Sequence record: NC_015933.1
DNA: 64,000 nucleotides
Reading direction: 5' to 3' (one strand)
DNA from: Escherichia phage vB_EcoP_G7C
The notes beneath the pieces are model-generated. The model was not told the DNA's origin. It was given only the letters and a program-made list of their open reading frames with translations, and made no database searches. Of this stretch, positions 212 through 23,992 are shown one piece after another; position 1 is the first letter of the stretch; every line of letters starts with the position of its first letter. The position numbers and the translations under genes were made by a program.

Positions 212-400
212 ATGTATAAAGAGATTGCATTCTTCTCGTTCTTATTAGGAGGGTTAATTGGTGCAGGAATTGTAGCTATTTCTAATACCTACTTTGGTTC
301 TACTCCAAATTCTGTAACACAAACCCTCAAGCATGAATGTGAATTGAATATCCCTCGTAACCAAAACTGTGTAATGCAGTTCGTACCGGAGAAGAAATGA
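212..400 (+). CDS. Small membrane protein (one hydrophobic helix FFSFLLGGLIGAGIVAI)
   Basis: ORF track; ATG with GGAG-like upstream; overlaps next ORF as ATGA. Confidence 0.4.
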   Translation: MYKEIAFFSFLLGGLIGAGIVAISNTYFGSTPNSVTQTLKHECELNIPRNQNCVMQFVPEKK

Positions 401-582
401 AACTAACCCAGTCCCAAGCAATTTTCCTTCGCATGGTTCAAGGTGGTTCTGCCACCAGCAACCGTAATAACAAAACCGCACAGTCTCTTAAGAAGCTGGG
501 CTTAGTACAGTTCAATGCTGGTCTTGGGTGGTCATTAACCCCTACCGGTGTACTTCAACTCAACGAATTAAAAGGTAACTAA
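397..582 (+). CDS. Hypothetical protein
   Basis: ORF track; ATGA start/stop overlap with upstream ORF. Confidence 0.4.
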   Translation: MKLTQSQAIFLRMVQGGSATSNRNNKTAQSLKKLGLVQFNAGLGWSLTPTGVLQLNELKGN

Positions 583-909
583 ATGAAAACTTTAATTGCT
601 GTTGTTCTAGTAGCTCTATCAGTTCTGTCATTCGGTGCTCAAGCATCTAGTCGTGCAACCTTGTTGGAATCTGCTGCTGATTACAAAGCTAATAATGCAA
701 ACTTTGTGAATCAAGGTTACTTCATGGGCATGGTTACTATGGGTGTGGAAGCAGGAAAGAATTGTGTACCTGACGGTATAAAATTAGGGCACATTTTTGA
801 CAGAGTGGCATCTATTATTCTGTATGACCGAAAGGTTAATGCAGTAAAAGTACCATCAGACATGGTTCTGTTAGCGATTAATACAGCCTATCCCTGCGTT
901 AAATCTTAA
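583..909 (+). CDS. Secreted/periplasmic protein with N-terminal signal peptide (MKTLIAVVLVALSVLSFGAQA)
   Basis: Typical n-h-c signal peptide with AQA cleavage motif. Confidence 0.55.
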   Translation: MKTLIAVVLVALSVLSFGAQASSRATLLESAADYKANNANFVNQGYFMGMVTMGVEAGKNCVPDGIKLGHIFDRVASIILYDRKVNAVKVPSDMVLLAINTAYPCVKS

Positions 910-943
910 TTAGTAATTCCATTAACTTTAGGAGAGTAAGTAA

Positions 944-1996
944 ATGGCGAGCATTGACTCCTTGACTGTATGTAATACACGCCAAGCCCGTAACTTTATT
1001 ATCCGTGCCTTGCAAGCAGGTAACGTACCGTTCCTGACTTCATCACCAGGTATGGGTAAGTCTGCAATTATTCGTTCTATTGCAGAAGAATTTGGTATGA
1101 AGCTGATTGACCATCGTCTGTCTACTTCTGCCCCGGAAGACTTATCTGGTCTACCATTCCGTAATGGTGACCGTGCAGAGTTTATTCCATTTGCTGACTT
1201 ATTCCCTATCGAGGGTGACAAAGTACCGGATGGTTATAATGGCTGGCTCCTGTTCCTTGATGAGTTCAACTCAGCTAAGAAAGAAGTAGTGGCTGCTGCA
1301 TACAAACTAATTCTCGACCGCATGACCGGACAGAAAAAACTTCACCCTAATGTGATGATTATCTGTGCCGGTAACAAAGCTACTGACCGAGCCATAGTTA
1401 ACCCACTGGGTACTGCAATGCAGTCTCGTGTTGTCCACTTCGAAATGGAACTCGACTTCGACATCTTTGTTGAAGACGTAATGATTCCACAAGAATGGGA
1501 TGAGCGTCTGGTTGCATTCTTACATGCTAACCCTGGTTATCTGCATGACTTCGACCCCGCACATAAGAATAAAACATTCTGTTGCCCACGTACCTGGGAC
1601 TTTGTTAACAAAGACCTCAAGAACCGACCAGAAGGTGCTTTGCCTGATGAAGATTCTATCTACTATGCAGGCCACGTTACTGCTGGTAAAGCTACAGAGT
1701 TTGTTCAGTTCACTCAGGTATACAATCGTATGATTACGATTGAGAAGGTAGTAAAAGACCCGTTAGGCTGTGCACTACCGGAAGATAATAACCTGTGTTG
1801 GGCTACTGTTAACCATCTGGCTAACAAAACTACTGAAGATAACTTCGCTGATGTTCTTCAGTACATTGAACGCTTTAAAACGTTCACCCATAAGATTCTG
1901 TACTTCCGTACAGTAGGAAAAGCATTACCAGAAATTCAGGCTACCCCTGAATGGCGTAAGGCTGCTGCCAATATCTCTCGTTACATTCACGGATAA
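944..1996 (+). CDS. AAA+ ATPase, MoxR-like
   Basis: Walker A SSPGMGKS, Walker B LLFLDEFN, sensor-1 ICAGN; AGGAGA RBS 8 nt upstream of ATG. Confidence 0.85.
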   Translation: MASIDSLTVCNTRQARNFIIRALQAGNVPFLTSSPGMGKSAIIRSIAEEFGMKLIDHRLSTSAPEDLSGLPFRNGDRAEFIPFADLFPIEGDKVPDGYNGWLLFLDEFNSAKKEVVAAAYKLILDRMTGQKKLHPNVMIICAGNKATDRAIVNPLGTAMQSRVVHFEMELDFDIFVEDVMIPQEWDERLVAFLHANPGYLHDFDPAHKNKTFCCPRTWDFVNKDLKNRPEGALPDEDSIYYAGHVTAGKATEFVQFTQVYNRMITIEKVVKDPLGCALPEDNNLCWATVNHLANKTTEDNFADVLQYIERFKTFTHKILYFRTVGKALPEIQATPEWRKAAANISRYIHG

Positions 1997-1999
1997 ACT

Positions 2000-2476
2000 A
2001 TGAACTGGCATGAACTATTTGTTTATAGCAATGGTTCCCTTTACTGGAAAGTAAGTAGGGGCTGCGTAAAAGCAGGTGCCATTGCTGGTTGTTTGGATAA
2101 CAGCGGGTATTTGCGTGTTAAATGTAATAGAAAAAATCATTTAGTTCACCGCATAATTTATGAAATGGAAATTGGTCCAATTCCTGATGGTATGCAGGTA
2201 GACCATATTGACCACAATAGGCTAAATAATTACCCAAGTAATTTCCGTTTAGTAACAAACATGGTTAATAGTAAAAACCAAACCATGAGAGTAACAAATA
2301 CATCAGGTGTGACAGGAGTATACTGGCACACTCGGGATAAAATTTGGACTGCCCATATAAATGACAATGGTAAACAAATTTACTTAGGAAAATTTAACAG
2401 TAAACAAGAAGCCATTTCAGCCAGAAAGGAAGCAGAAAAATTATTGGGCTACCATATAAATCATGGGGAACCCTAA
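2000..2476 (+). CDS. HNH homing endonuclease with AP2 DNA-binding domain
   Basis: HNH core VDHIDHNRLNN; AP2-like GVTGVYWHTRDKIWTAHIN…GKFNSKQEAISARKEAE. Confidence 0.85.
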   Translation: MNWHELFVYSNGSLYWKVSRGCVKAGAIAGCLDNSGYLRVKCNRKNHLVHRIIYEMEIGPIPDGMQVDHIDHNRLNNYPSNFRLVTNMVNSKNQTMRVTNTSGVTGVYWHTRDKIWTAHINDNGKQIYLGKFNSKQEAISARKEAEKLLGYHINHGEP

Positions 2477-3651
2477 TGAATAGTATACCTACGCATACTC
2501 TCACTGATGAACGGTTAATGAGGGAGTACGATAGAATACAAGCGCAGGCATTTCTCGGACGTAGTGCAGCGTTTTTTGGTTCATTGCTGTGTAGTCTTAA
2601 GTTCTCATGGAAACGTGAGGGCTGTCCCACTGCATGTACCGACGGGATAGAACTCCATTTCAACCCAGACTTCTTTATCTGGATGTGTCCTGATGCAAGG
2701 GAAACAGTGCTAATGCACGAACTTTGGCATGTGGCATATCTGCATGGAATCCGTTGTGGAAGCCGTGATCCAGAAGTCTGGAACCAGGCATGTGACCACT
2801 TCATTAACCTTCAGTTAGAGGAAGATGGTTACAAGTTCACTGGTATCGACAAAGGCATTTGCAAAGACCCTCAATATAAAGGATGGGTCGAAGAAGACAT
2901 CTACGATGACCTGATGAAGAACCCTCAGAAAAGGCAGAAGCCGTCGGGGGGAGCTGGAGCAGGTCTTGCTGGCGACATGAAAGCTCCCTCTTCGGGGCAG
3001 TCCCAGGGTGCTGTTGTCAACAACGTAGTACGTGCAATACAAAGCCAGAAGATGGCTGGTGGAACGATGCCCGGTAAAGGTGCTGGTCGTATGGAAGAGG
3101 TTATTACCCAATTCCTTAAACCAGTGGTTCCGTGGCAGGAAGTCCTGATGAACTTCTTTACCGACATTGATGATACGCATTATACGTGGGCCAGACCCAA
3201 CCGTCGTTTCACTGACGTCTATCTACCTTCTCTGGAAGATGATGAAGGACGTTTACGACACTTAGCCTATTTTGAGGATGTATCCGGTTCTATTAGTAGT
3301 GCTGACTCTCTGCGTTTTAACTCAGAGGTTGCCTACGTTAAGAGCCAGTTCAATCCTAAGAAGATGACCCTAATTACCTTCGACGATATTATCCAAGAAG
3401 AAATAGACATCACTGAAGAAGATACTTTTGAAGAGATTAAGATTACTGGACGAGGGGGTACAAACCTTGAACCAGTGCGTGAATGGATTATTAAGAATAA
3501 GCCAACCGCTGCAATCATATTCTCTGATATGTATGTTCGCCCTATGGAAGATTTACCATTTGATATTCCTATCATCTGGTGTGTTCTGAATAATCCTAAT
3601 GCTACCGTACCTTTTGGGGAGGTAGTTCATATCCCTAAAGGAATGAAATAA
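2476..3651 (+). CDS. VWA-domain protein with N-terminal HExxH metallopeptidase-like domain (partner of the MoxR-like ATPase)
   Basis: HELWH zinc-binding-type motif near N-terminus; MIDAS-like DVSGS; start overlaps HNH stop (TAATG). Confidence 0.8.
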   Translation: MNSIPTHTLTDERLMREYDRIQAQAFLGRSAAFFGSLLCSLKFSWKREGCPTACTDGIELHFNPDFFIWMCPDARETVLMHELWHVAYLHGIRCGSRDPEVWNQACDHFINLQLEEDGYKFTGIDKGICKDPQYKGWVEEDIYDDLMKNPQKRQKPSGGAGAGLAGDMKAPSSGQSQGAVVNNVVRAIQSQKMAGGTMPGKGAGRMEEVITQFLKPVVPWQEVLMNFFTDIDDTHYTWARPNRRFTDVYLPSLEDDEGRLRHLAYFEDVSGSISSADSLRFNSEVAYVKSQFNPKKMTLITFDDIIQEEIDITEEDTFEEIKITGRGGTNLEPVREWIIKNKPTAAIIFSDMYVRPMEDLPFDIPIIWCVLNNPNATVPFGEVVHIPKGMK

Positions 3652-4157
3652 TGATTGTTAATGGTAATTCTCTATACCGTTCATCTCAATTGCTGGATGT
3701 CCCAGACCGTAAGGTATCCGAGCATGGTGTAAGCTATGGATTAGGTGAAGCTGGTTATGATATTCGTATCAAACAAGACATTACCTTCTATCGCTTATTT
3801 GGGTTAATTCCAATGGTGAAAATCGTCGATGGAAAACAAGTATCACGCCATCTCGGTAAATTCGCATTAGCTTCAGCAATTGAGAAGTTCAACATGTCAC
3901 CCTCGTGTGTAGCTATCGTTCACGATAAGTCCACATGGGCAAGACGTGCATTATCTGTGTTCAATACCGTAATAGAACCAGGATGGAAAGGGTATCTTAC
4001 CCTTGAACTGGTCTATCACGGTCGTAAGAAACTGCATATCCCGGCTGGTGCTGGGATAGCTCAAGTATTATTTCATCTGGTTCAAGAGCCTGCTAATTAC
4101 AACGGCAAGTATCAGAATCAGGAGGACAAACCAGTAGCTGCAAGAAGCAGTAAATAA
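3651..4157 (+). CDS. dcd: dCTP deaminase / dUTPase-fold enzyme
   Basis: dUTPase-superfamily motif IEPGWKGYLTLEL; 168 aa, size typical of dCTP deaminase. Confidence 0.65.
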   Translation: MIVNGNSLYRSSQLLDVPDRKVSEHGVSYGLGEAGYDIRIKQDITFYRLFGLIPMVKIVDGKQVSRHLGKFALASAIEKFNMSPSCVAIVHDKSTWARRALSVFNTVIEPGWKGYLTLELVYHGRKKLHIPAGAGIAQVLFHLVQEPANYNGKYQNQEDKPVAARSSK

Positions 4158-4166
4158 GGAAACAAC

Positions 4167-4367
4167 ATGTCTGTATTTCAAGTAACTCCTGTTGATAGTA
4201 CCCAACGTAAAACTATTGTTGCAACTAATGTAGTAGATGTAGATGAAACCCCAGCTGGTGCTGTAATCCATCTGATTGATGGGCGAACTGTAACTGTAAA
4301 AGAAAGCTATCGTTCAGTACGTGGTTACGTCCGTAAAGCTTTAGCTGCTGTCTCTGATGCAGAGTAA
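4167..4367 (+). CDS. Hypothetical protein
   Basis: ORF with AAGGAAA RBS. Confidence 0.5.
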   Translation: MSVFQVTPVDSTQRKTIVATNVVDVDETPAGAVIHLIDGRTVTVKESYRSVRGYVRKALAAVSDAE

Positions 4368-4440
4368 GTAGCTGCCTAAATAGCCCAACTATGCTGGGCT
4401 ATTTGTGAAGAAACTAACTCAACCTCACATAGGAACCATC

Positions 4441-4701
4441 ATGGAATCTTTAGCAGCAATCCTCGTTCTGTTATTTGCACTTGCTATATACCTTATCCCT
4501 ACTATTATTGCTTTTGCACGAGGCCATGCCTCTAAGTGGGGCATTGGTATACTCAATATCGTATTAGGCTGGTCTTTAGTCTTCTGGGTAGTAGCACTGA
4601 TTTGGTCACTGTCTAACAAAGGGCAGTCTCAGACTACAATCGTTAACGTTGGCAGTGGTAACCAGTACAACGTGTCTCAAACGAGCCAGTCTGATAAGTA
4701 A
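4441..4701 (+). CDS. Small membrane protein (two TM helices)
   Basis: ATG at 4441 with AGGAAC RBS (ORF-track start 4405 is GTG); hydrophobic helices LAAILVLLFALAIYLIPTIIAF and GIGILNIVLGWSLVFWVVALIW. Confidence 0.55.
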   Translation: MESLAAILVLLFALAIYLIPTIIAFARGHASKWGIGILNIVLGWSLVFWVVALIWSLSNKGQSQTTIVNVGSGNQYNVSQTSQSDK

Positions 4702-4775
4702 CTAACCTAAGCATCATTGTATAGTGGTGCTTGTGGAAGTTGCTTCCAGCTCATTACTTATCCATCTCCTAATCC

Positions 4776-4803
4776 AAGCCCACCTAACCCGTGGGCTTTT
4801 TTT
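4776..4803 (+). terminator. Rho-independent terminator
   Basis: Stem AAGCCCAC/GTGGGCTT with T7 run. Confidence 0.7.
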
Positions 4804-4824
4804 AATTATAGGTAGTAAATACTA

Positions 4825-5268
4825 ATGCGTATCCCATTCCTAAGAAAAAGGGAACGGAATCCTGTTCTTTATAATAAAGGCATAGAGGATGAGTATGAAC
4901 TCAACCGTAAGGCCCGTTCCTACGCAGCAAAATTATTCATGGGGACTAGCAACCCTAATAGATTACTGGACTTTGTTTTCGAACAAGTCTTTATCATATA
5001 CAGCTTAGCTATGTCTGCTGGTTCACAAGAAGTAAGTGATAAGGCAAGATATGCTCTCTGTATGCTCCGGAAAGAGTATGAAGCCCTCCTGTATGAAGAC
5101 TTGTACTCCTTTAAGAAAGAAACCGCTGTAGCGTGTTCTGTGGCTCTTACTGAAGGTATAGCAGTATTACAAGAACTACCTCGTAGTGAGTTTAAGCTGG
5201 TATATGCCCAGGCCAGGAGAATTACAGAAAACCGAAGTGGTATTACCAACTATCTAAGGTCATTCTAA
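4825..5268 (+). CDS. Hypothetical protein
   Basis: ORF track; coupled to thyX by TAATG overlap. Confidence 0.55.
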   Translation: MRIPFLRKRERNPVLYNKGIEDEYELNRKARSYAAKLFMGTSNPNRLLDFVFEQVFIIYSLAMSAGSQEVSDKARYALCMLRKEYEALLYEDLYSFKKETAVACSVALTEGIAVLQELPRSEFKLVYAQARRITENRSGITNYLRSF

Positions 5269-6212
5269 TGATTAAGGCAACTGTCATTGCAGATTCCGTT
5301 CATCATGTAACGGGTACTCGTATTACTACCTTTGAATTGGTTTATCCTCGATTCATTCACAGTGAGTTTATGACCCACCGTGTATTCAACCGAAATGCTT
5401 CAAGTAGTCGTGCTATCCCTACTTCTAAGTTCATAGAACAGGTTCGTAATGAACCAGTGATGCCAAGTCACTGGGGCAAGAACCAGAAAGGTATGCAGGC
5501 ATTTGAAGAATTGTCTGAAGACCAACGTAGTGATGCAACCTTTATCTGGGAACAGGCTGCATCCAGTGCTGCTACCTATGCAGAAATGCTTCGTCGTGGA
5601 CAAGTACATAAGCAGATTGTTAACCGTATTCTGGAACCATTTACGCATATCCGTGTAGTGGTAACTTCAACTAGCTGGGCTAATTTCTATGGCTTACGTG
5701 ACCATGAAGATGCTCAACCAGAGATTCGTGAACTGGCTCAAGCAATGCGTAAGGCTCATAATGAAAGTGTTCCATCTAAGCTGTCCCAAGGTGTGTGGCA
5801 TCTGCCTTATATTCGCAAGATTGATTGTATTAACGCTTACGATCATTGCAAACATCAACGAGTTACTTGTGATAAACCAAGTGATGAAGAAGTTTTAGGC
5901 TTACTGCTTAAAGTCTCTGCTGCTCGCTGTGCACGTGCCTCCTATAACAACTTTGAAGGCAAGCCATCTACTATTAGTGATGACCTTGCCCTCTTTGCTA
6001 AGTTGGTAGAGAAACAACCAATTCATGCGTCACCTACTGAGCATCAAGCTACCCCGATGGACTTCAGTACCAAGTTTGTTAACAACCAGAACCCATTAAC
6101 CTGGGAACAAGGTGTTACCTCTATGGACCGTGAAGGTAAGCTGTACTCAGGCAACTTACTGGATTTCATCCAATTCCGTAAACTAATACCCGGAGAAACA
6201 ATTACAGAATGA
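5268..6212 (+). CDS. thyX: Flavin-dependent thymidylate synthase (ThyX-like, divergent)
   Basis: ThyX-like HR…S…S.R signature in MTHRVFNRNASSSRAIP and C-terminal DAQPEIRELAQAM resembling the ThyX HAQWEIR region. Confidence 0.65.
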   Translation: MIKATVIADSVHHVTGTRITTFELVYPRFIHSEFMTHRVFNRNASSSRAIPTSKFIEQVRNEPVMPSHWGKNQKGMQAFEELSEDQRSDATFIWEQAASSAATYAEMLRRGQVHKQIVNRILEPFTHIRVVVTSTSWANFYGLRDHEDAQPEIRELAQAMRKAHNESVPSKLSQGVWHLPYIRKIDCINAYDHCKHQRVTCDKPSDEEVLGLLLKVSAARCARASYNNFEGKPSTISDDLALFAKLVEKQPIHASPTEHQATPMDFSTKFVNNQNPLTWEQGVTSMDREGKLYSGNLLDFIQFRKLIPGETITE

Positions 6213-6445
6213 AACGTTTAGCTATCCAAGCTCTATTTATAAGTATCATCCTGGTTCTGGAATTTGTATTTGCACTACATGGTGCACAGAGCCTGGAAGA
6301 GATGTTCTTCGTAGTAGCCCGTTTCTCTGCGTGTGTTCTTGGCTTGTGGTGTGTGTATTACTATGCACGAGATTACGCAGCCATTAAGGAACATGATGAT
6401 GCTAAGGAACGTCTACGACAATTCGTAGAAGAGAATCGTAAGTAA
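6209..6445 (+). CDS. Small membrane protein
   Basis: Two hydrophobic segments; ATGA overlap with thyX stop; followed by terminator. Confidence 0.5.
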   Translation: MKRLAIQALFISIILVLEFVFALHGAQSLEEMFFVVARFSACVLGLWCVYYYARDYAAIKEHDDAKERLRQFVEENRK

Positions 6446-6450
6446 ACCTA

Positions 6451-6476
6451 AGACCTCCTCCGGGAGGTCTTTTTTT
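6451..6476 (+). terminator. Rho-independent terminator
   Basis: Stem AGACCTCC/GGAGGTCT, TCCG loop, T6 run; same stem family as terminator at 157-186. Confidence 0.7.
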
Positions 6477-6504
6477 GGTTTCAATTACTGTCCCAGGAGG
6501 ACTT

Positions 6505-6729
6505 ATGGCAAGTTGGTACGCAACTATGTTGGAGAAAGATTCCAATGGACTATGCAGGGAATCCGTCGGTAGTTTTAAAAACATCTGTATAGATGGGCGT
6601 TTATGCATGATTAACGCAATAGATATTGCAGAAGAAACCCTGTCTAAAGAGTCAGGTTATGCAGGGTTTAAGCTGGAAAAACTTAATAGAGCCTGGGATT
6701 ACAGAAATCCTTTTATTTATAAAAATTAA
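6505..6729 (+). CDS. Hypothetical protein
   Basis: ATG at 6505 preceded by CAGGAGGA RBS (ORF-track start 6475 lacks RBS). Confidence 0.4.
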   Translation: MASWYATMLEKDSNGLCRESVGSFKNICIDGRLCMINAIDIAEETLSKESGYAGFKLEKLNRAWDYRNPFIYKN

Positions 6730-6738
6730 GGAAACAGT

Positions 6739-6951
6739 ATGCCTGCTAAATACCGTATCAAAGACACTCCACTAATGTGTGAGGGTGAGAAGGGTGACAT
6801 TGTATATGCCTGTATACAGGATGATTTCAATGCTGCTCTGATGTTAACCCAAATGACAAATACACTGCATGTATCAGTAACACTGGACCCTACCGGGGAC
6901 TATCCATGCTTCCCTATCCCTGCTCATAACCTGGAGCAAATCCGTGATTAA
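6739..6951 (+). CDS. Hypothetical protein
   Basis: ORF with AAGGAAACAG RBS. Confidence 0.45.
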   Translation: MPAKYRIKDTPLMCEGEKGDIVYACIQDDFNAALMLTQMTNTLHVSVTLDPTGDYPCFPIPAHNLEQIRD

Positions 6952-7258: not shown

Positions 7259-7391
7259 AGTATTCATCTATTTCATGGCTCTACCCTACATACTTAATGA
7301 GTTATTGGGTACATACGGTACAGCCGTAGGCATTTCTGTAGTTGTATTCAGTCTTTTCCTATAAGCAACATTTAAACTGGAGAGTAAATAA

Positions 7392-9956: not shown

Positions 9957-9960
9957 TCTG

Positions 9961-12843: not shown

Positions 12844-12863
12844 CCCTCTACGGAGGGTTTTTT
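12844..12863 (+). terminator. Rho-independent terminator
   Basis: Stem CCCTC/GAGGG, TACG loop, T6. Confidence 0.65.
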
Positions 12864-12876
12864 ACTGGAGATTTAA

Positions 12877-14187: not shown

Positions 14188-14197
14188 GGGAGGGTAT

Positions 14198-14728: not shown

Positions 14729-14737
14729 GGTAAAGCT

Positions 14738-17317
14738 ATGCGTTACATCACCTCTCAGGATACTGGCAAGTATCCTATTGCTATCCTCGGTCATCAAATC
14801 CGAAGGGAGGAGATGATTAAAACCTACCTGCTGCCTTATGACCTAAGCATGGAAGATTTCATCTTCCTTGAACTTCATTCTGCCCCTGGCAAGAAGAAGA
14901 CCCCTGCAAGGGAGATTAAGGAGTTCATACAGCAGGAACTACAGCAAGTACTGGATGATGCAGAGACTCAATACATTATCTGTACCGATTCTGACTACTT
15001 CAAAATACTGACTAAAGAAGCTAAAGCAGAGGCTAACCTCGGCTATGTTTGTGATTCAGTATGGGGTAAGCAGAAGGTTATCTATACACCTAGCTACAGA
15101 CAGGTCTTTTATGACCCACCTGTAGTGAAAGCCAAGATTGCTCAGGGAATGGATGCATTACTTAACCACATTCGCGGACAGTATGCTGAACCAGGGCAGG
15201 GAATCATTGAGTTTGAAGCCTACCCAGATACACCCGAAAAGATTAAAGCCTGGTTGGACCAGTTGCTTGAGATGAATAAGCCTCTGGCTATAGACATCGA
15301 ATCATTCGGTTTAAAGCACTATAACGCAGGCATAGGAACGATTACGTTCTGTTGGAGTAAGACACAAGGCATAGCCTTTAATGTGGACTACGAGCCAATT
15401 AAGGGAGCTACTGAAGCACCTTATGGGCGTATAAACAGGAATGATGTTGTTCGTAACCTGTTACGCGAGTTCTTCATTAAGTACACCCAACGGCAGATGT
15501 ATCACAACATTAGCTATGACGTGTACATACTTATCTATCAGTTATTCATGGATAACCTGATTGATACGGAAGGCTTACTACATGGCATGGAAATCATGCT
15601 ACGTAACTGGGACTGTACTAAGTTAATCACCTACCTGGCTACTAACAGTTGTGCCGGTAATCACCTTAGTCTGAAAGACCAGGCTCAGGAGTATGCTGGT
15701 AACTATGCTCAGGATGATATTAAAGACATACGTCTTATTCCTAATGAGCAACTGTTACGCTACAACCTCATTGATGGTTTGTGTACGTGGTACACCTACG
15801 AGAAGCACTGGGATACTCTCATTGCTGATGACCAACTAGATGTTTACAACAACATCTTTAAACCAGCCTGTGAAGACATTATTCAGATGCAGTTAACCGG
15901 TATGCCCATGAATATGGAAACCGTTAACCAAGTGGCTGAAGAGATGGAAACTGACAGGAACCAGGCTTTGAAAACTATTCGTGAGTCTAAGCTCATGAAG
16001 AATTTCACCCTGATGCTTCGTCAGGAATGGGTAGACGATAAGAATGCTAAGCTTAAGAAGAAGCAAGTAACATTGGCTGATTGTGACATTGAGTTTAATC
16101 CTAACTCCGGTCCTCAATTACAGAAACTGTTATTTGATTATATTGGCTTACCGGTTCTTGGTCTTACTAAGAGCAAGCAACCTGCTACTGACGGTGACAC
16201 TATTAAAGCACTGCGTACACATACGCAGAGTGAAGATGTTAAGGAACTGCTCAATGCACTTATCGACTATAAACTCGTGGATAAGATTATCACTAGTTTT
16301 ATACCAGCTTTCAGGAATGCCCAACCGGGGCCGGATGGCTGGCACTATCTGTTCGGAAACCTCAATCTGGGAGGCACAGTCTCCGGTAGGCTATCGGCTT
16401 CAGAGCCAAATCTACAAACAATTCCATCCGGTTCTAAATATGCCAAGAAGATTAAGAAATGCTTCGAAGCCCCTCCTGGCTGGATATTTTGCGGTTTGGA
16501 CTTCGCCTCGCTGGAAGACAGAATATCTGCATTGACTACCAAAGACCCCCAGAAGCTGAAGGTGTATACCGATGGCTATGATGGTCATAGTCTTCGTGCG
16601 TATGCTTACTTTGGTGAGCAGATGCCAGACATAGTAGACACAGTTGAGTCAATCAATTCTATTCAGACGAAGTACAAGCACTTGCGTAGTGATTCTAAAG
16701 CCCCAACTTTCTTGCTTACCTATGGTGGCACGTACATGGGCTTGATGAAAAACTGTGGCTTCTCAGAAGAGAAAGCTAAGACAACAGAGAAACGTTATCA
16801 CGACCTCTATGTAGTTAGTGATGCGTGGGTTCAGGCTAAGCTAGATGAAGCTGCCAAAACTGGTTATGTTACTGCTGCATTTGGTTTGAGAGTGCGTACT
16901 CCTTTACTGGCTCAGGTATTACGTGGGACATGTAAGACTCCATATGAAGCAGAAGCTGAAGGTAGGACTGCTGGTAATGCCTTGGGGCAAAGCTGGTGTC
17001 TACTGAATAACCGTGCTGGTTCAGAATTTATGCGTAAAGTCAGAGCCAGTGAGTTCAGATTAGATATACGCCCTAGTATTCACATTCATGATGCTCAGTA
17101 CTTCATGATTCGTGACAATATGGATACCTTGCAGTACACGAACAAGCACTTGGTGGAAGCCGTTAACTGGCAAGACCATCCTGATATTGCTCATCCAGAA
17201 GTTGGTTTGGGTGGGGAACTATCCTTGTTTTACCCAACGTGGGCTAACGAGATTGAGATTCCAAATCACGCTACCCCAGAAGAAGTTCATCAAATAATTC
17301 AAAAGGCATTCGCATGA
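14738..17317 (+). CDS. DNA polymerase, family A (Pol I-like) with 3'-5' exonuclease domain
   Basis: Exo motif DIESFGL; Pol motif A DFASLEDR, motif B KAPTFLLTYGG, motif C IHIHDAQYF. Confidence 0.92.
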   Translation: MRYITSQDTGKYPIAILGHQIRREEMIKTYLLPYDLSMEDFIFLELHSAPGKKKTPAREIKEFIQQELQQVLDDAETQYIICTDSDYFKILTKEAKAEANLGYVCDSVWGKQKVIYTPSYRQVFYDPPVVKAKIAQGMDALLNHIRGQYAEPGQGIIEFEAYPDTPEKIKAWLDQLLEMNKPLAIDIESFGLKHYNAGIGTITFCWSKTQGIAFNVDYEPIKGATEAPYGRINRNDVVRNLLREFFIKYTQRQMYHNISYDVYILIYQLFMDNLIDTEGLLHGMEIMLRNWDCTKLITYLATNSCAGNHLSLKDQAQEYAGNYAQDDIKDIRLIPNEQLLRYNLIDGLCTWYTYEKHWDTLIADDQLDVYNNIFKPACEDIIQMQLTGMPMNMETVNQVAEEMETDRNQALKTIRESKLMKNFTLMLRQEWVDDKNAKLKKKQVTLADCDIEFNPNSGPQLQKLLFDYIGLPVLGLTKSKQPATDGDTIKALRTHTQSEDVKELLNALIDYKLVDKIITSFIPAFRNAQPGPDGWHYLFGNLNLGGTVSGRLSASEPNLQTIPSGSKYAKKIKKCFEAPPGWIFCGLDFASLEDRISALTTKDPQKLKVYTDGYDGHSLRAYAYFGEQMPDIVDTVESINSIQTKYKHLRSDSKAPTFLLTYGGTYMGLMKNCGFSEEKAKTTEKRYHDLYVVSDAWVQAKLDEAAKTGYVTAAFGLRVRTPLLAQVLRGTCKTPYEAEAEGRTAGNALGQSWCLLNNRAGSEFMRKVRASEFRLDIRPSIHIHDAQYFMIRDNMDTLQYTNKHLVEAVNWQDHPDIAHPEVGLGGELSLFYPTWANEIEIPNHATPEEVHQIIQKAFA

Positions 17318-17619
17318 CTAAAAGTACTAAAGAAACCATCGTCAAAAAATATCATTGGATGGTGGCAGCACAGGTAATCTTCCAGCTCCCTAAAGCTGAT
17401 GATGGTTCTCTGCTTACCATGAACACAATGCTGCTCACTACCGAACCTCATGTGACCTATAAAGATTTGGCTCGTGCCAATCATTCCCTGAAAATTAGTC
17501 TGGACCAGCGTTTCGACACCTCAGTTGACCTGAAAGACATTGTTTATCTGTCTCTTAGCAACCTGGGTCTGATGTCTGAACCAGAGTTCCAGGCAAACAT
17601 GATTCCCAAGGGGGAATAA
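17314..17619 (+). CDS. Hypothetical protein
   Basis: ATGA overlap with polymerase stop. Confidence 0.55.
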   Translation: MTKSTKETIVKKYHWMVAAQVIFQLPKADDGSLLTMNTMLLTTEPHVTYKDLARANHSLKISLDQRFDTSVDLKDIVYLSLSNLGLMSEPEFQANMIPKGE

Positions 17620-18089
17620 TGACTAAGCTCTCCGGTGGCCTTAATAACTACTATGTAGTTTCAATTAAGAATCCCCAACGGAAAGAGCAAGAGCCATATC
17701 AAGCAGAGTGTGAGGATATTATCCAAGCACTGGGCATGACCTTCGATGAAGGTTGTGCCTTTAAAGCTCTATGGCGAAATGCTGCTGCCCGTATGGGTAA
17801 TGGTAAACCAGGTAATAAAGCCCTGTATGACTGTGAGAAGCTAGTTCATTACGCTAATCGTATTCTCGCTAAAGAAAGGTTAGCGGAGGAACCAGCAGTC
17901 AAAGATGTCCTTAACTCTGTGTGTAATAATTGGATTTACTCTAACGAGAAACCTCTGCTCACTAAACCATTTACGTTTATTGAGGTTATCTTCAAAGACC
18001 AGACTATCCCTATTCCAAGCACTTACCTTGCGAATAACATTGGAGCAATTCCTTGGGATAATGTACAGAAATACAGGATTACTTACTGA
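17619..18089 (+). CDS. Hypothetical protein
   Basis: TAATG overlap; GGGGGA RBS. Confidence 0.55.
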   Translation: MTKLSGGLNNYYVVSIKNPQRKEQEPYQAECEDIIQALGMTFDEGCAFKALWRNAAARMGNGKPGNKALYDCEKLVHYANRILAKERLAEEPAVKDVLNSVCNNWIYSNEKPLLTKPFTFIEVIFKDQTIPIPSTYLANNIGAIPWDNVQKYRITY

Positions 18090-18160
18090 TGAAGATAACC
18101 AACAACCATGATGTCTCACTAGCTCTGGCTGTATGGCTATTGCATGATGAGTAACTAATT

Positions 18161-18658
18161 ATGAAACAGAGGATTGCCCATGACAGGCTTTTACAGCTTG
18201 TTAGTTATGACCCTATTTCCGGAATTTTTACTCGTAGGAATACCGGAAAGGTATCCGGTTACCTAATGAAGAGTGGTTACGTTCAACTCCGTGTGGATAG
18301 TGTGTTGTACTATGGGCATATCCTTGCATGGTTCTATGTGCATGGCGTATGGCCTACGGATAGGATTGACCATAAGGACAATATACGCCATCACAACTGG
18401 ATAGATAACCTCAGAGAAGCGACCCACAAGCAGAATAACCAGAGTGCTGTTTTATCTAAAACAAACACATCTGGGTTTAAGGGTGTCTCCTTTTCAAAGA
18501 ATATGGGTAAGTACAGAGCAACTATTTGGGTTAATAGCAAACCAATTACATTAGGTTACACAGATAACCCAATAGAGGCTGCTGTTCTCTACGATGAAGC
18601 TGCTGTAACTCATTATGGTGAGTTTGCCAAAACCAACAAACAATTAGGACTGTTATGA
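18161..18658 (+). CDS. HNH homing endonuclease with AP2 domain
   Basis: HNH-type RIDHKDNIRHHNWIDNL; AP2-like GFKGVSFSKNMGKYRATIWVN…LGYTDNPIEAAVLYDEAA. Confidence 0.8.
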   Translation: MKQRIAHDRLLQLVSYDPISGIFTRRNTGKVSGYLMKSGYVQLRVDSVLYYGHILAWFYVHGVWPTDRIDHKDNIRHHNWIDNLREATHKQNNQSAVLSKTNTSGFKGVSFSKNMGKYRATIWVNSKPITLGYTDNPIEAAVLYDEAAVTHYGEFAKTNKQLGLL

Positions 18659-19635
18659 AACTTACTAACAATCATGATGTTAGTCTTGCACTAGCTGTTT
18701 GGCTTGTTACAGATGATTATGATTACGTAGACAATCCTAAGTACCTGTCTGCTACCACATTGCTTAAGCCCATTAAGCAAATCGTCATGAAGCATCGTGT
18801 AGATTTTAGTGACCAGTCAATTGATGTTATGGATTTCGTATCCACATCAATGGGTACTGGCTTACATGATTCTATCGAGAAAGCCTGGAAGCTAGGCCAT
18901 AAGACTGCATTGAAGAAGCTGGGTTATCCTCAGCGAGTAATTGATGCAGTAGTCATTAACCCAACCAAAGAAGACTTTGCTGCTAACCCTGACCTTATCC
19001 CAATCTACATTGAACAACGTGGAACCAAGCAGGTTAAGGGATGGACTATTGGTGGTAAATTCGACATCGTAACGGAAGGTCTGTTGCAAGACTTCAAGTC
19101 TACCTCAACCTATTCCTGGGTTGCTGGTTCCCGTGATGATGAACACAAGATGCAAGGCAGCTTGTACCGTTGGATTCACAACGACATCATTACTGAGGAT
19201 GTAATTCGTATTAACTACATCTTCACCGACTTCATGAAACACATGGCTAACAGCAATCCGAACTATCCTGCTAATCGTATTATGCATAAGGATATTCCGT
19301 TACTGTCTGTCGAGAAGACTGAACGTTGGGTGGAAGAGAAGATTCACTTAATCGAAAAGTACTGGGATGCACCTGAAGAGGAAATCCCCGAATGTACTGA
19401 CGAGGAGTTGTGGCGAACAGAGCCACAGTTCAAATACTTCTCTGATGCTTCTAAGGTAGATGTACCTGGAGCCAGAAGTACCAAAAACTTTGGCGATATG
19501 GCATCTGCCCGTATCTTCATGGCTGAAAAAGGTGGCAAGGGTGCTATCAAGGTTGTGGAGGGGCAGGTTAAACGCTGTTTATATTGCCCTGTCGCATCCA
19601 TTTGCAAACAAAGAGAGAGATATTTTCCATCATGA
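18655..19635 (+). CDS. PD-(D/E)xK nuclease with C-terminal Fe-S cluster cysteines (Cas4/RecB-like exonuclease)
   Basis: Motif II FDIV, motif III QDFK, QxxxY (QGSLY), four Cys including C-x2-C-x5-C at the C-terminus (CLYCPVASIC). Confidence 0.65.
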   Translation: MKLTNNHDVSLALAVWLVTDDYDYVDNPKYLSATTLLKPIKQIVMKHRVDFSDQSIDVMDFVSTSMGTGLHDSIEKAWKLGHKTALKKLGYPQRVIDAVVINPTKEDFAANPDLIPIYIEQRGTKQVKGWTIGGKFDIVTEGLLQDFKSTSTYSWVAGSRDDEHKMQGSLYRWIHNDIITEDVIRINYIFTDFMKHMANSNPNYPANRIMHKDIPLLSVEKTERWVEEKIHLIEKYWDAPEEEIPECTDEELWRTEPQFKYFSDASKVDVPGARSTKNFGDMASARIFMAEKGGKGAIKVVEGQVKRCLYCPVASICKQRERYFPS

Positions 19636-21785
19636 GCATTGACCTTACCGGAGTAGTGCATCATCCAGCGATTGAAGAAATCGTAGATGTGCTCTGCAAT
19701 AAAACCCAGAATAACGACCGGGGATTCTTCCGTGTCGAAGTAGCCTACTTCTTGGCTAAAATGGCATCCTGCATGGGTGCAACCATCGTAACTAAAGACC
19801 GTGGTGACCTGCCGGTAAACATCTACGCTATGGCGTTGGCTACATCTGGTTTCGGTAAAGGTCACTCGGTAAATATCATTGAAGACGGGTTCATGACTGG
19901 CTTCCGTAAACGTTTTATGGAAGACACCATGCCCGTCATTGCAAATGACCGTTTATGGAAGATTGCTAACGAACGTGCTGCTCGTCAGGGTACAGACCAG
20001 AATGATGAGTTCGATAAAGTTGAAGCAGAGTATAAGCGTGCTGGGGCATTCCCATTCACATTCGACTCTGGTACAGCACCTGCTGTAAAACAGCTTCGTC
20101 ACAAGCTGCTTATGGCTGGTTGTGGTGCTATTAACTTACAGATTGATGAGATTGGTTCCAACCTCATTGCCAACGTTGAAGTTCTTAACCTGTTCCTTGA
20201 GTTGTATGACCAGGGGAAAGTAAAACAGAAGTTAACCAAGAACACTGCTGAAAGTATTCGTGGTGAAGAACTGGATGGTAAAACTCCTGCTAACCTGCTG
20301 CTGTTCGGTACTCCGAGTAAGTTGCTGGATGGTGGGCAGACTGAAGACCAGTTCTATGACTTCCTCGATACAGGATATGCACGTCGTTGTCTGTTTGCCA
20401 TTGGGCACTTAGACAAGCGAGCGCATGCAACGATGACTCCGGAAGAAATCTACCATAACCTGATTAAGCAGGATAACGTTCAGTCTCTTGGTAAGTGGGC
20501 TAACCACTTCCATAGTCTGGCTGACCCAAACCTGTTTGGCTTTAAGATGATTGTGGAAGATGCAGTGGGTATTGCTCTGATTGCTTACAAAATTGATTGT
20601 GAGAAACAAGCAGAAGCTATGGCTGACCACGAAGAAATTCGTAAGGCTGAAATCTCCCACCGTTACTTCAAGGCTCTTAAGCTGGCAGGTGCACTGGCGT
20701 TTGTTGACCAGAGTTCATTCATTGAGATGTCTCACCTTAAACAAGCAATCCTGCTCGTAGAAGAATCCGGAGCAGCATTCCAGGGTATTCTCAATCGTGA
20801 GAAAGCCTATGTGAAGCTGGCTAAGTACATTGCCTCTGTGGGCAAAGAGGTTACTCATGCTGACTTGCTGGAGTCATTACCATTCTATAAGAGTGGTAAT
20901 GCAGCTCGTAATGAGATGATGACTCTTGCTACAGCATGGGGTTACAAACAGCACATCATTATTAAGAAGACCTTCAATGAAGGCATTGAGTTCTTCCGTG
21001 GAGAGACTCTGAAAGAGACTGACACCAATGAGATGATAGTGGCATATAGTGATAGCTTTGCTTATGACTATGTTGGTGAACGTGTACCGTTTGACCAGCT
21101 ACATGTATTAACCCAAGCTCCCGGTATGCACTGGGTAAACCATCACATGAAGAATGGGCATCGTTCTGAAGAGAACGTTATTCCAGGATTTAACATGATT
21201 GTTATTGACTGTGATGGTGGAGTACCTCTGCATACGTGCCATGAACTGATGAAGGAATATAAGTTCATGACCTATACCACTAAGCGTCATACCGATGAAG
21301 AGAACCGCTTCCGTCTGATTATTCCAATGAACTATGAGTTACACCTTGATACTGAGGAATACAAAGAGTTCATGAATAACGTTATGGCTTGGCTACCATT
21401 CGAAACGGATGAGTCTGCTAACCAACGAGCCAAGAAGTGGATGTCCTGTGAGACTGGTTCCTATCATTACAACCTTGATGCGAATCTGTTGGATGTACGT
21501 GACTTTATTCCTCGTACCAGTAAGAACGAGCAGTTCCAGAACCAGATGAAGGAAGTACAGTCGTTGGATAATCTGGAGCGTTGGTTCGCTGGTCGTATTG
21601 CCTCCGGTAATCGTAATAATCAAATGATTAAGTACGCACTGGCATTAGTAGACAGTGGTTGGGACTTTGCTCAAGTACAGCAAGCCGTCTACTCATTCAA
21701 TAAGAAACTGGCTAATCCATTACCAGATGATGAATTGAATTCAACCGTAATGGTCACCGTGGCTAAACGCTTCGCTGGCAAGTAA
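19632..21785 (+). CDS. Putative DNA primase / replication initiation protein
   Basis: Large ORF between nuclease and ATPase/SSB genes; ATG at 19632 overlaps upstream stop (ATGA); function assigned by position in an N4-like replication module, no unambiguous motif. Confidence 0.5.
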   Translation: MSIDLTGVVHHPAIEEIVDVLCNKTQNNDRGFFRVEVAYFLAKMASCMGATIVTKDRGDLPVNIYAMALATSGFGKGHSVNIIEDGFMTGFRKRFMEDTMPVIANDRLWKIANERAARQGTDQNDEFDKVEAEYKRAGAFPFTFDSGTAPAVKQLRHKLLMAGCGAINLQIDEIGSNLIANVEVLNLFLELYDQGKVKQKLTKNTAESIRGEELDGKTPANLLLFGTPSKLLDGGQTEDQFYDFLDTGYARRCLFAIGHLDKRAHATMTPEEIYHNLIKQDNVQSLGKWANHFHSLADPNLFGFKMIVEDAVGIALIAYKIDCEKQAEAMADHEEIRKAEISHRYFKALKLAGALAFVDQSSFIEMSHLKQAILLVEESGAAFQGILNREKAYVKLAKYIASVGKEVTHADLLESLPFYKSGNAARNEMMTLATAWGYKQHIIIKKTFNEGIEFFRGETLKETDTNEMIVAYSDSFAYDYVGERVPFDQLHVLTQAPGMHWVNHHMKNGHRSEENVIPGFNMIVIDCDGGVPLHTCHELMKEYKFMTYTTKRHTDEENRFRLIIPMNYELHLDTEEYKEFMNNVMAWLPFETDESANQRAKKWMSCETGSYHYNLDANLLDVRDFIPRTSKNEQFQNQMKEVQSLDNLERWFAGRIASGNRNNQMIKYALALVDSGWDFAQVQQAVYSFNKKLANPLPDDELNSTVMVTVAKRFAGK

Positions 21786-21841
21786 GCAAACAGGAGTCTT
21801 TCTTTGGTTTGAAGGACTCCTAAACTAAACGAGGAAAAATA

Positions 21842-22594
21842 ATGTCCGAAGAAATCTCCAATGATATGAACACTCAGCTAATCCTGATTGCAGGATTCTC
21901 AGCGAGTGGTAAATCAGCATCACTGCGTAATATCCGGAACCAGGAACGCTGGCTGTATTTGAATACAGAAGCGGGTAAGCGTCTGCCTTTCCGTAATAAG
22001 TTCAACACCTATAACATCGAAGACCCATATCAGATTTGGGAAGCATTTGATGTTGCATCTCCGGGTGGTGAAATGGCAGACGATGTTGATGGTATCATTA
22101 TCGACTCTGCTACCTTCATGATGGACATGTTGGAATCTCAGTATGTATTGCCATCTGCTAATACCCAGAAAGCCTGGGGAGACTTTGCACAGTTCTTTAA
22201 AATACTGCTGCAACAGAAAGTCGTTAAGTTTGGTAAGCCAGTAATCATTACTGCTCATGCCAAAGATGAACTTGACGAAGCTGCTGGTGTGATGAAAACA
22301 TTCATCCCGGTTAAGGGTTCACTGAAGAACAATGGCCTTGAGGCTTACTTCTCTACAGTGGTTTATGCAGAACGTGTAGACATTAAAGAGCTGGAGAAGT
22401 ATGGCAACAAGATGCTTGATATTACGGAAGAAGAACGTGACTTAGGCTATAAGCACGTATTCCAGACTCGTCCAACCAAGAAGTCTGTTGGTAAACGACT
22501 TCGCTCACCAATGGGTATGTTTGATAAGTCGCAGACTTATATTGATAATGATGCCCAAAAACTCTTAGACCATCTGGCTGAATACTACGCTTAA
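21842..22594 (+). CDS. P-loop ATPase, RecA-like fold (Sak4/AAA_24-like recombination or replication protein)
   Basis: Walker A AGFSASGKS, Walker B GIIIDSATF; GAGGAAAAA RBS. Confidence 0.55.
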   Translation: MSEEISNDMNTQLILIAGFSASGKSASLRNIRNQERWLYLNTEAGKRLPFRNKFNTYNIEDPYQIWEAFDVASPGGEMADDVDGIIIDSATFMMDMLESQYVLPSANTQKAWGDFAQFFKILLQQKVVKFGKPVIITAHAKDELDEAAGVMKTFIPVKGSLKNNGLEAYFSTVVYAERVDIKELEKYGNKMLDITEEERDLGYKHVFQTRPTKKSVGKRLRSPMGMFDKSQTYIDNDAQKLLDHLAEYYA

Positions 22595-22634
22595 GCGTTT
22601 GCCTGGTTGTTAATCACTTATTAGGAAAAATATT

Positions 22635-23438
22635 ATGTCACTGTTCAGTAACTTGAAAGAAAAGACCAAAAACGTTGAAGCTGTAAAAGACTCCCTTGGT
22701 GGTGGTGGCTTCGGTGCAAAAGAATCCGATATCTACACCGGTACTGTAAAAGTAGCTTATGTAGGTAAAGCTGACTCTGGTGCAGACTGGATGCAGTTAA
22801 TCATTGAAAACCTGAAAGGTTCTGACGGCAATGATGCTGGTGAGTTCCGTGCTCAGGTGTACTTTACTTCTGGTAATGCTAAAGGCAATAAGCCAACTTA
22901 CGAGAAGAATGGTAAAGAGTACTTCCTGCCTGGTTACACTGTCATTAATGACATGATGCTGATGGCTACTGGTTGTGAACTGCCAGATGCAGACTTCGAA
23001 GAGAAGATTGTTAAAGTCTATGACTTCGATCTGAAAGCTGAAACCAATAAATCTGTCATGGTTCCAGTTGACCTGGTTGGTCAGACTGTTACCTTCGCTC
23101 TGGAAAAGGTTCTGGAAGCTAAGCAGGTTAAAGGTGACAACGGTTACGTTGACTCCGGTGAAACCCGTGAAGTAAACGAGATTCAGAAAGTGTTTCACCC
23201 GGAACTGCTGGTCACAGTCGTCGAGGCTCAGGAAGCAGAGAAGGCTGAGAAAGAACTGACCCCAGAACTGGCTGTATTCTACGGAGCATGGCTGGAAAAG
23301 AACAAAGGTAAAACCCGTGATAAGACCAAGGGTTCTGCTGGTGGTAATGGTAAAGGTGGCTTGCCTCCTAAACCAGGTGCAGGTGCTGGCACGGGTACTA
23401 CTCCAGCTGGTGGTAAATCTCTGTTCGGTAAGCGTTAA
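22635..23438 (+). CDS. Putative single-stranded DNA-binding protein (by position), Gly-rich termini
   Basis: 267-aa ORF with AGGAAAAA RBS; Gly-rich C-terminal tail; assignment by synteny. Confidence 0.45.
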   Translation: MSLFSNLKEKTKNVEAVKDSLGGGGFGAKESDIYTGTVKVAYVGKADSGADWMQLIIENLKGSDGNDAGEFRAQVYFTSGNAKGNKPTYEKNGKEYFLPGYTVINDMMLMATGCELPDADFEEKIVKVYDFDLKAETNKSVMVPVDLVGQTVTFALEKVLEAKQVKGDNGYVDSGETREVNEIQKVFHPELLVTVVEAQEAEKAEKELTPELAVFYGAWLEKNKGKTRDKTKGSAGGNGKGGLPPKPGAGAGTGTTPAGGKSLFGKR

Positions 23439-23992
23439 TGAAAATCCCAATTGTCGGTGCAGACATTAGCCTCCGCAATTGGGGATTAGCTCGTGGGATG
23501 CTGGACATTGAGTCCGGCGTCTTCGAGCAGGTCGAACTTAAACTGGTTCAAACTGAAGTTGACCACAACAAACAAGTTCGAACCAACTCCAAAGATATAC
23601 AAGCTGCCCATGATTTGTTTCTTGGTTGTGAGGAATGGTTACGGTCTGCTAAAGCAGTATTCGTAGAAGTACCAGTAGGCTCTCAGTCTGCTAATGGAAT
23701 GAAGTCCTATGGTGTATGCGTAGGATTAATTGGTGCATTCCGTGCATTGGGTTGTCCAATCTTTGAAGTATCCCCAATTGAAAACAAACTTGCACTGGTC
23801 GGCGATAAAACTGCATCAAAAGACACGATGATTCGTGCTGCTCATGCCATCTATCCTGAAGCCAACTGGCTCACGGATAGTAAAGGTAAACTTCTGAATA
23901 AGAATGAGCACTTAGCTGATGCAATCGGTGCAATCCACGCTGGTGTAAATCTCCCAGCTTTCCAGAATCTCATTAAATTAATAAAGGCATAA
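23438..23992 (+). CDS. RuvC-like Holliday junction resolvase
   Basis: N-terminal IVGADISLRNWGLA resembles the RuvC catalytic-Asp strand; C-terminal HLADAIGAIHAG resembles the RuvC D..A.A motif. Confidence 0.5.
   Translation: MKIPIVGADISLRNWGLARGMLDIESGVFEQVELKLVQTEVDHNKQVRTNSKDIQAAHDLFLGCEEWLRSAKAVFVEVPVGSQSANGMKSYGVCVGLIGAFRALGCPIFEVSPIENKLALVGDKTASKDTMIRAAHAIYPEANWLTDSKGKLLNKNEHLADAIGAIHAGVNLPAFQNLIKLIKA

Follow-up and report, generated by a model that had tools for sequence, protein, structure and literature searches.

Introduction

Does the overlap of stop and start codons in a compact phage gene block mean that neighboring genes are translated in a coupled manner? This question is raised by Escherichia phage vB_EcoP_G7C (sequence record NC_015933.1), from which a stretch of 64,000 nucleotides (nt), here called the window, was analyzed. 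A first-pass annotation of the sequence had noted that many adjacent plus-strand genes between positions 397 and 23992 overlap as ATGA or TAATG, that one further pair may overlap by 77 nt, and that this arrangement implies tightly coupled expression and constrains where the true starts lie. Translational coupling is textbook knowledge for the operons of bacteria and phages.

The explanation which we consider best, and which we hold with reasonable confidence, is that the genes form the middle block of a Gamaleyavirus, compacted into a few polycistronic units. The short overlaps in this block would be capable of supporting reinitiation, the 77-nt overlap is a separate matter and two of the junctions were made by homing endonuclease genes.

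Results

The short overlaps are exact and fix the start codons

All ten listed junctions were confirmed exactly in the sequence; five are ATGA overlaps with a spacing of -4 and five are TAATG overlaps with a spacing of -1. The first class comprises the junctions between two small hypothetical genes (212-400 and 397-582; overlap at 397-400), between ThyX and a small gene (6209-6212), between DNA polymerase and the gp40 homolog (17314-17317), between a homing endonuclease gene and an exonuclease gene (18655-18658) and between exonuclease and primase (19632-19635). At 397 the downstream gene has the Shine-Dalgarno (SD) sequence GGAG (-6.6 kcal/mol), and the same junction is present in phages PhAPEC7 and Bas96. 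The second class comprises the junctions between another homing endonuclease gene and the gene for a VWA/DUF2201 protein (2474-2478, start 2476), between the latter and dCTP deaminase (3649-3653, start 3651), between the gp29 homolog and ThyX (5266-5270, start 5268), between the gp40 and the PNK-like gp41 homologs (17617-17621, start 17619) and between SSB and the RuvC-like gp46 homolog (23436-23440, start 23438). The junctions at 2476 and 18655 were made by insertion.

The partners of each pair are adjacent on the plus strand with no terminator between them, and a common transcript is predicted for each. Stop and start codons share bases at these ten junctions, which is not the case for the gp35/gp36 pair with its spacing of -77. 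The listing was correct but slightly incomplete; it lacked an 8-nt overlap (6944-6951, plus strand) between the gp31 and gp32 homologs and a relic TGATG at 18087-18091. The gp32 homolog starts with GTG, where most relatives have ATG; the spacing of -8 is found in N4 and most relatives.

In nine of the ten junctions the overlapping ATG is the first possible start of the open reading frame (ORF) after the preceding in-frame stop; at the exception, 19632, the only alternative starts upstream are two TTGs. At the ten junctions one has to go 8-39 codons further to reach the next in-frame start, and the alignments with orthologs from 20 related loci begin at the first residue of each downstream protein. 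Because of these first-start positions and the alignments from residue 1, the start assignments are sound. The claim that the overlaps constrain the true starts therefore holds, each start being either the first in its ORF or backed by N-terminal conservation.

Some of the overlapping starts could nevertheless have been miscalled, with the true starts downstream and the overlaps as annotation artifacts. In-frame downstream starts are indeed available 8-41 codons into the genes, and the PhAPEC7 RefSeq record gives the gp36 homolog (gp39, 113 amino acids) a short form with a non-overlapping start. However, the orthologs of all ten genes align from their first residue out to N4, and the position of nine of the ten ATGs as first start leaves little room for such errors. 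We consider miscalled starts very improbable and have rejected them on the basis of the first-start positions and N-terminal alignments; the special case of gp36 is treated below.

Stop/start overlaps are enriched in the middle genes

Ten of the 33 same-strand junctions in the block of middle genes have a spacing of exactly -4 or -1, while about 1.3 would be expected from a crude null model with uniform spacing over -10 to +40 (binomial P = 3.5e-7). Spacings of -4, -1 and -8 are enriched throughout prokaryotes (PMC12548453; PMC6728339), and the enrichment of -4 and -1 in the block is this familiar one. The minus-strand late module has such a spacing at one of its 18 junctions.

The stop codons fit with an easy mutational origin of the overlaps, because an upstream frame which enters an NTGA start terminates there. 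Five of the seven TGA stops occur in ATGA overlaps, and TAA is used at 24 of the 26 other gene ends. The sequence NTGA is already present at 14 of the 26 starts (54%) outside the -4 overlaps. The geometry itself is due in large part to compaction of the genome and to the ease of mutation; a start codon followed by A already provides a TGA stop in one frame.

The late/structural module (38647-61124, minus strand) has, besides its single -4 overlap (58136-58139), one spacing each of -8, -11 and -16. Its genes are mostly 1-20 nt apart.

The overlapping starts resemble ordinary initiation sites

We next compared the initiation sites at the ten overlapping starts with other sites in the sequence. 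The mean energy of pairing with the anti-SD sequence was -5.4 kcal/mol at the overlapping starts and also -5.4 kcal/mol at 23 other starts; random coding positions gave only -2.1 kcal/mol (P = 7e-5 against the overlapping starts). Opening of the region from -18 to +8 requires 7.2 kcal/mol at overlapping starts, 7.6 kcal/mol at other starts and 11.0 kcal/mol at random coding positions. A search of the ten junctions for defective starts, with either a weak SD or an occluded initiation region, found none. Independent initiation is thus possible, because SD strength and openness match those of the non-overlapping starts.

A termination-reinitiation mechanism would work as follows. A ribosome which ends the upstream gene at a short overlap would already be positioned on the next start codon and could reinitiate there, helped by the SD located within the 3' end of the preceding gene; neighboring proteins would then be made in linked amounts. 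Experiments on Escherichia coli gene pairs with spacings of -4 or -1 are informative in this respect. Four of the five tested pairs were coupled, bioBF being the one that was not, and SD motifs aided reinitiation in four of the five (PMC6728339).

Tight juxtaposition is conserved but exact geometry is not

Junction spacings in the relatives were compared for each downstream gene. SSB/gp46 has a spacing of -1 in all 17 Enquatrovirinae-type loci; the value is -4 in Achromobacter phage JWDelta, where an inserted HNH gene precedes gp46, -8 in Possum and +3 in OLIVR3. Of 19 relatives, 16 (N4 and JWDelta among them) have a spacing of -4 between DNA polymerase and gp40, and 19 of 20 have -4, -1 or -8 between exonuclease and primase. 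The ThyX/small gene junction at 6209 is -4 in most Gamaleyavirus loci. This comparison indicates that tight juxtaposition is kept across the relatives and that the exact overlap is not.

Several of these results weigh against a reading in which the overlaps serve for coupling. The overlapping starts cannot be distinguished from free-standing ones in SD strength or opening energy, and nothing in the sequence points to initiation sites that an upstream ribosome would first have to open. The precise spacing is labile: Possum has +10 at exonuclease/primase, and three junctions have a spacing of -1 only within Gamaleyavirus, namely VWA/dCTP deaminase at 3651 (+6 in N4), gp29/ThyX at 5268 (-8 in N4 and in one other locus, L015) and gp40/gp41 at 17619 (+1 to +3 elsewhere, +2 in N4). 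Such lability speaks against any one overlap being under strong selection. Between middle and late genes the contrast (10/33 versus 1/18) is no more than suggestive (Fisher P = 0.07). Finally, a search of the literature for data on translation in N4 or G7C yielded genome papers only, with neither ribosome profiling nor N-terminal proteomics among them.

These points raise the possibility that the overlaps are a by-product of compaction and easy mutation without functional coupling, the downstream genes being translated independently from their own SDs. Such an origin would agree with the equal strength and openness of overlapping and non-overlapping starts, with the NTGA found at 54% of the starts outside -4 overlaps and with the drift of overlap geometry among genera. 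It would also agree with the origin of two overlaps by mere insertion of mobile genes and with the uncoupled bioBF overlap of E. coli (PMC6728339). On the other hand, the remaining four of the five E. coli pairs tested in that study are coupled, and SSB/gp46, DNA polymerase/gp40 and exonuclease/primase hold -4 or -1 across about 30-50% protein divergence. Furthermore, where stop and start share bases, termination leaves the ribosome physically on the start codon, and a certain amount of reinitiation is hard to avoid. On balance we find it unlikely, while worth serious consideration, that the overlaps have no coupling function at all.

The reading with reinitiation-capable overlaps is retained in a weaker form than the first-pass annotation had given it. 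Coupling is plausible and tight coupling is a reasonable textbook inference; it is not implied, since it was drawn from geometry alone and the starts look independently competent. The sequence is compatible with it without demanding it. We regard coupling as probably partial and superimposed on independent initiation, because each overlapping start also resembles a normal, open site with an SD. It is incidental at 2476 and 18655, where endonuclease genes were inserted, and the notion does not apply to the 77-nt overlap.

The gp35/gp36 overlap is a different kind of arrangement

The possible 77-nt overlap (12388-12464, plus strand) proved to be real, in that the same length is annotated in N4 and both frames show constraint at the protein level. 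The upstream partner is the gp35 homolog (12069-12464, stop at 12462-12464), a predicted helix-turn-helix (HTH) protein which matches PHROG 6377 over its full length and HTH families of Pfam weakly; it starts as in PhAPEC7, Bas96 and N4. The downstream partner, the gp36 homolog (12388-12843), is a predicted MazG-like nucleotide pyrophosphohydrolase (PHROG 671 over residues 8-151) and is read in the +1 frame relative to gp35. Both are on the plus strand. In N4 (NC_008720) gp35 (20143-20538) and gp36 (20462-20914) share the same 77 nt (20462-20538), and Bas96 has the same arrangement. An overlap of 77 nt occurs in 12 of the 14 Enquatrovirinae-type loci in which gp36 aligns from residue 1; the two others, L003 and L004, carry an endonuclease insertion. 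Elsewhere the spacing is -86 in three loci (L011-L013), the overlap is 209 nt as annotated in JWDelta, and in OLIVR3 the spacing is -23 with another upstream gene.

The alignments of gp36 to every relative in tblastn searches begin at residues 1-9, even for JWDelta and OLIVR3 with about 48-50% identity. The N-terminus W-F-x-K-A-V-P-N-P-T-S-K-N-I-S-T-Q-I-G-C-H-L-E-E-V is conserved as far as these two phages. Within the overlap, the first half encodes the conserved gp35 tail H-[DE]-[KR]-F-[IL]-[KR]-x-Y-[AV]-G and the second half the conserved gp36 helix W-F-x-K-A-V-P-N-P-T. The variable sites follow the same division, although the comparison of 13 unique sequences is qualitative. Upstream of the overlap they follow the third codon positions of gp35 (27 of 30 variable), and downstream those of gp36 (16 of 20). 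In the second half of the overlap 10 of 11 third positions of gp36 are variable versus 5/12 in each of the two remaining classes; the pattern in the first half is mixed. A purine-rich motif (AAGAGAG, AAGGTAC or AGGAAAC) is conserved at -12 to -6 of the gp36 start.

Two IMG/VR loci have an HNH gene exactly between gp35 and gp36, which splits the overlap (7096-7660 in L003 and 7098-7662 in L004). Behind this gene gp36 retains its long N-terminus (MSDIITQTKKWFEIAVPNPTSK...). In the same loci the similarity of gp35 is lost beyond residue 118, the insertion replacing the C-terminal 13 residues.

The PhAPEC7 RefSeq record (L001, NC_024790) places the MazG-like gene at 12775-13116, with a start that drops about 40 conserved N-terminal residues. 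The only downstream in-frame ATG available for gp36 in the window, at 12511, lies inside the conserved acidic motif HLEEVEEM, which speaks against a miscalled gp36 start. Against it also stand the 40 upstream residues, which are conserved down to 48% identity with the codon periodicity of the gp36 frame, and the annotation of the long form in N4 and Bas96. The short RefSeq form is thus probably wrong and the long form of N4 and Bas96 right.

The long overlap with its conserved length and the adjacency of the two frames could in principle mark a programmed frameshift site, at which a gp35-gp36 fusion would be made instead of two separately initiated proteins. However, gp36 lies in the +1 frame, for which the usual -1 slippery-site mechanism would not work. 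Every locus has a conserved ATG preceded by the purine-rich motif at the start of gp36. In L003 and L004 gp36 stands alone downstream of the endonuclease gene, and in OLIVR3 another gene precedes it. A search for RNA structure in the fold of 12340-12480 gave nothing better than shuffled sequences (z = -0.39). A frameshift is hardly credible under these circumstances. The fusion was rejected because of the +1 frame, the conserved ATG and SD and the standalone gp36 genes in L003, L004 and OLIVR3.

The 77-nt overlap cannot be a termination-reinitiation junction, because coupling has been reported to be lost at a spacing of -25 nt (PMC12548453). Translation of gp36 must begin within gp35, at the purine-rich SD of gp36 itself, with ribosomes still reading gp35. 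The conservation in both frames identifies the gp35/gp36 overlap as a conserved out-of-frame dual-coding segment, which is a different thing from the short overlaps.

Two junctions were made by homing endonuclease genes

The window contains three predicted homing endonuclease genes with an HNH_3 nuclease domain and an AP2 DNA-binding module. The first (2000-2476, plus strand; Pfam HNH_3 9e-18) lies in the 7-nt spacer between the ATPase and VWA genes and the second (18161-18658, plus strand; HNH_3 3e-9) precedes the exonuclease gene; in a scan of these two against PHROGs, both match PHROG 99 at 1e-60 or better. The third is at 24675-25172 (HNH_3 3e-17). In all three the AP2 matches are below the Pfam cut-off. 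The three genes are 30-37% identical to one another where they can be compared.

The first two occur sporadically: PhAPEC7 and Bas96 have neither, and the locus L005 carries the second at the same site, where it is also annotated in Bp4, Uz-1 and EC1-UPM. In PhAPEC7 and Bas96 the gap between the ATPase and VWA genes is +7. The insertion fills this spacer and ends as TAATG on the VWA start.

The second insertion has left a more complex trace. In their native state gp41 and the exonuclease gene are joined at -1 in PhAPEC7 and at -4 in N4. In the window the stop of gp41 overlaps, as the native TGATG (18087-18091), the start of a relic of 21 codons from the exonuclease 5' end (18089-18154, plus strand; MKITNNHDVSLALAVWLLHDE followed by a stop codon), which is nearly identical to the exonuclease start of PhAPEC7. 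The endonuclease gene starts 6 nt after the relic and its TGA overlaps the exonuclease start at 18655. Comparison with 18655-18720 revealed that the exonuclease restarts there with a synonymously recoded copy of the relic codons (MKLTNNHDVSLALAVWLVTDDY). Because of this recoded copy in the working gene, about 60 nt of the target are duplicated; the duplicated and recoded 5' end flanking the second gene is only indirect evidence for homing by this putative endonuclease. The comparisons with relatives indicate that the junctions at 2476 and 18655 arose by insertion of HNH-AP2 genes at or near the start of the downstream gene and are not native design.

The SDs of the two endonuclease genes themselves are weak (-3.3 and -2.3 kcal/mol). 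Similar arrangements occur in relatives: the end of an HNH ORF overlaps gp46 at -4 in JWDelta, and that of an inserted 191-codon ORF overlaps the primase start at -4 in the locus L010. It is conceivable, though rather doubtful, that endonuclease genes insert at or just inside the starts of essential middle genes in such a way that the chain of tight junctions stays unbroken. For the second gene this chain would run from the gp41 stop over the TGATG, the 21-codon relic ORF and the 6-nt gap to the endonuclease gene and then via ATGA to the exonuclease. The endonuclease genes with their weak SDs could borrow ribosomes from the host genes and then hand them on, which would minimize polarity.

The junctions lie in a middle-gene block of an N4-like phage

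A megablast search with positions 1-24000 against phage genomes gave 92-94% identity over 91-95% of the query to Mimir124, Bas96, vB_Eco_F22, PhAPEC7 and SP5M. The plus-strand genes in 212-25378 are collinear with gp21-gp52 of PhAPEC7 and gp21-gp47 of N4, and they agree gene by gene with the annotation of Bas96. Downstream, a minus-strand ORF (27306-38570) corresponds to the giant virion RNA polymerase of PhAPEC7, with 92.6% amino acid identity in the best-aligned segment. This nucleotide identity and synteny with members of the genus identify the window as part of an N4-like E. coli podophage of the genus Gamaleyavirus (Schitoviridae, Enquatrovirinae).

All junctions are held by one N4-type middle-gene block (212-25378, plus strand), defined by identity, synteny and Pfam/PHROG matches as the homologs of N4 gp21-gp47; the genes were assigned by Pfam and PHROG scans and from the annotations of relatives. 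All genes named here are on the plus strand. The block encodes an AAA ATPase (944-1996), the DUF2201/VWA protein (2476-3651), dCTP deaminase (3651-4157), the gp29 homolog (4825-5268), ThyX (5268-6212), a small protein (6209-6445), rIIA (7392-9956) and rIIB (9961-12006). These are followed by a Dda/RecD-like helicase (12877-14187), DNA polymerase (14738-17317), the gp40 homolog (17314-17619), the PNK-like gp41 homolog (17619-18089), exonuclease (18655-19635), primase (19632-21785), a Sak4-like ATPase (gp44; 21842-22594), SSB (22635-23438) and the RuvC-like resolvase, the gp46 homolog (23438-23992). The earlier term replication module is broadly right according to the Pfam/PHROG matches and the gene assignments of relatives, in that helicase, DNA polymerase, exonuclease, primase, Sak4-like ATPase, SSB and resolvase are all present. 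As a label it is loose, since the block extends beyond replication to dCTP deaminase, ThyX, the MazG-like protein, rIIA/rIIB, the AAA-ATPase/VWA pair and a superinfection-immunity gene.

Strong plus-strand intrinsic terminators are confined to intergenic gaps and none is inside an overlapping pair. They were found at 157-179, where the first transcription unit is bounded and PhAPEC7 has a terminator annotated at the equivalent place, and at 4776-4798, 6450-6471 and, 3' of gp36, 12842-12859, each of which matches the PhAPEC7 annotation. Because each overlapping pair sits within one terminator-bounded unit, its genes are likely to be co-transcribed. Matches to sigma-70-like promoters in the window from 1 to 20000 number 27 and are fewer than in shuffled sequence (44.5 +/- 6.1). 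This shortage would fit transcription of the middle genes by phage RNA polymerase II and not by the host sigma-70 holoenzyme.

A homolog of N4 gp28 (PhAPEC7 gp29, 126 amino acids) is missing at 4701-4825, and the gp29 homolog at 4825 directly follows the terminator at 4776-4798; the gp28/gp29 junction of the relatives is one further -1 overlap. The genes for DNA polymerase and the Sak4-like gp44 are uninterrupted in the window. PhAPEC7 has introns with endonuclease ORFs in both genes, and Bas96 has one in gp44. Between the last plus-strand genes and the virion RNA polymerase gene end there is a gap (25378-27306) of about 1.9 kb, versus about 3.2 kb in PhAPEC7. An ARAGORN scan of the whole window found no tRNA gene; PhAPEC7 has one annotated in the region equivalent to this gap.

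Discussion

The stop/start overlaps of the window resemble those of bacterial gene pairs (PMC6728339, PMC10666635, PMC12548453) in their motifs, in the common strand and predicted transcript and in the SD inside the 3' end of the upstream gene. The phage pairs also have mainly spacings of -4 and -1 plus one of -8, and there is no structural difference between the two groups. They differ in that a dependence on upstream translation is a prediction for the phage, and no occluding structure is predicted at its initiation regions.

The middle regions of N4, PhAPEC7 and Bas96 have the same gene order as the window. Overlaps are likewise annotated in these phages at DNA polymerase/gp40, gp42/gp43, gp45/gp46 and gp31/gp32, and the 77-nt overlap of gp35/gp36 is annotated in N4 and Bas96. 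In contrast to these phages, the window has endonuclease insertions at 2000-2476 and 18161-18658, which have remodeled two junctions. Absent from it are the introns that PhAPEC7 has in DNA polymerase and gp44 and Bas96 in gp44, and also a homolog of N4 gp28. Furthermore, the junctions at 3651, 5268 and 17619, which are all -1 in the window, are +6, -8 and +2 in N4.

The inserted genes have their counterparts in the free-standing HNH genes of lytic phages and in MIRUs, which are mobile elements that insert at start codons with a spacing of -4 (PMC12548453). Common features are the presence/absence polymorphism between near-identical genomes, the insertion at the 5' end of a conserved gene with the end of the inserted ORF overlapping the host start as ATGA or TAATG, and the duplicated and recoded 5' end of the target (18089-18154 versus 18655 onward). 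Unlike MIRUs, the elements in the window are protein-coding HNH-AP2 genes and not repeats; their nuclease activity and homing are predicted. The resemblance to the MIRU insertions of PMC12548453 is a lead and not a test. If insertion indeed leaves the chain of junctions unbroken, it would be a protein-coding analog of start-codon-targeting MIRU insertion.

Altogether the overlaps represent ordinary tight packing of genes in a known N4-like phage; they are already annotated in its relatives, the phenomenon is well known and no new biology of translational coupling emerges from them. Their main value lies in annotation: a dozen middle genes have their start codons fixed by the overlaps, and the long form of the MazG-like gp36 is supported over the short form in the PhAPEC7 RefSeq record. 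The endonuclease insertions, which rebuild stop/start overlaps and leave a relic 5' ORF behind, are a variation on known behavior; as a tidy natural example they could be of interest to researchers who study mobile genes in phages.

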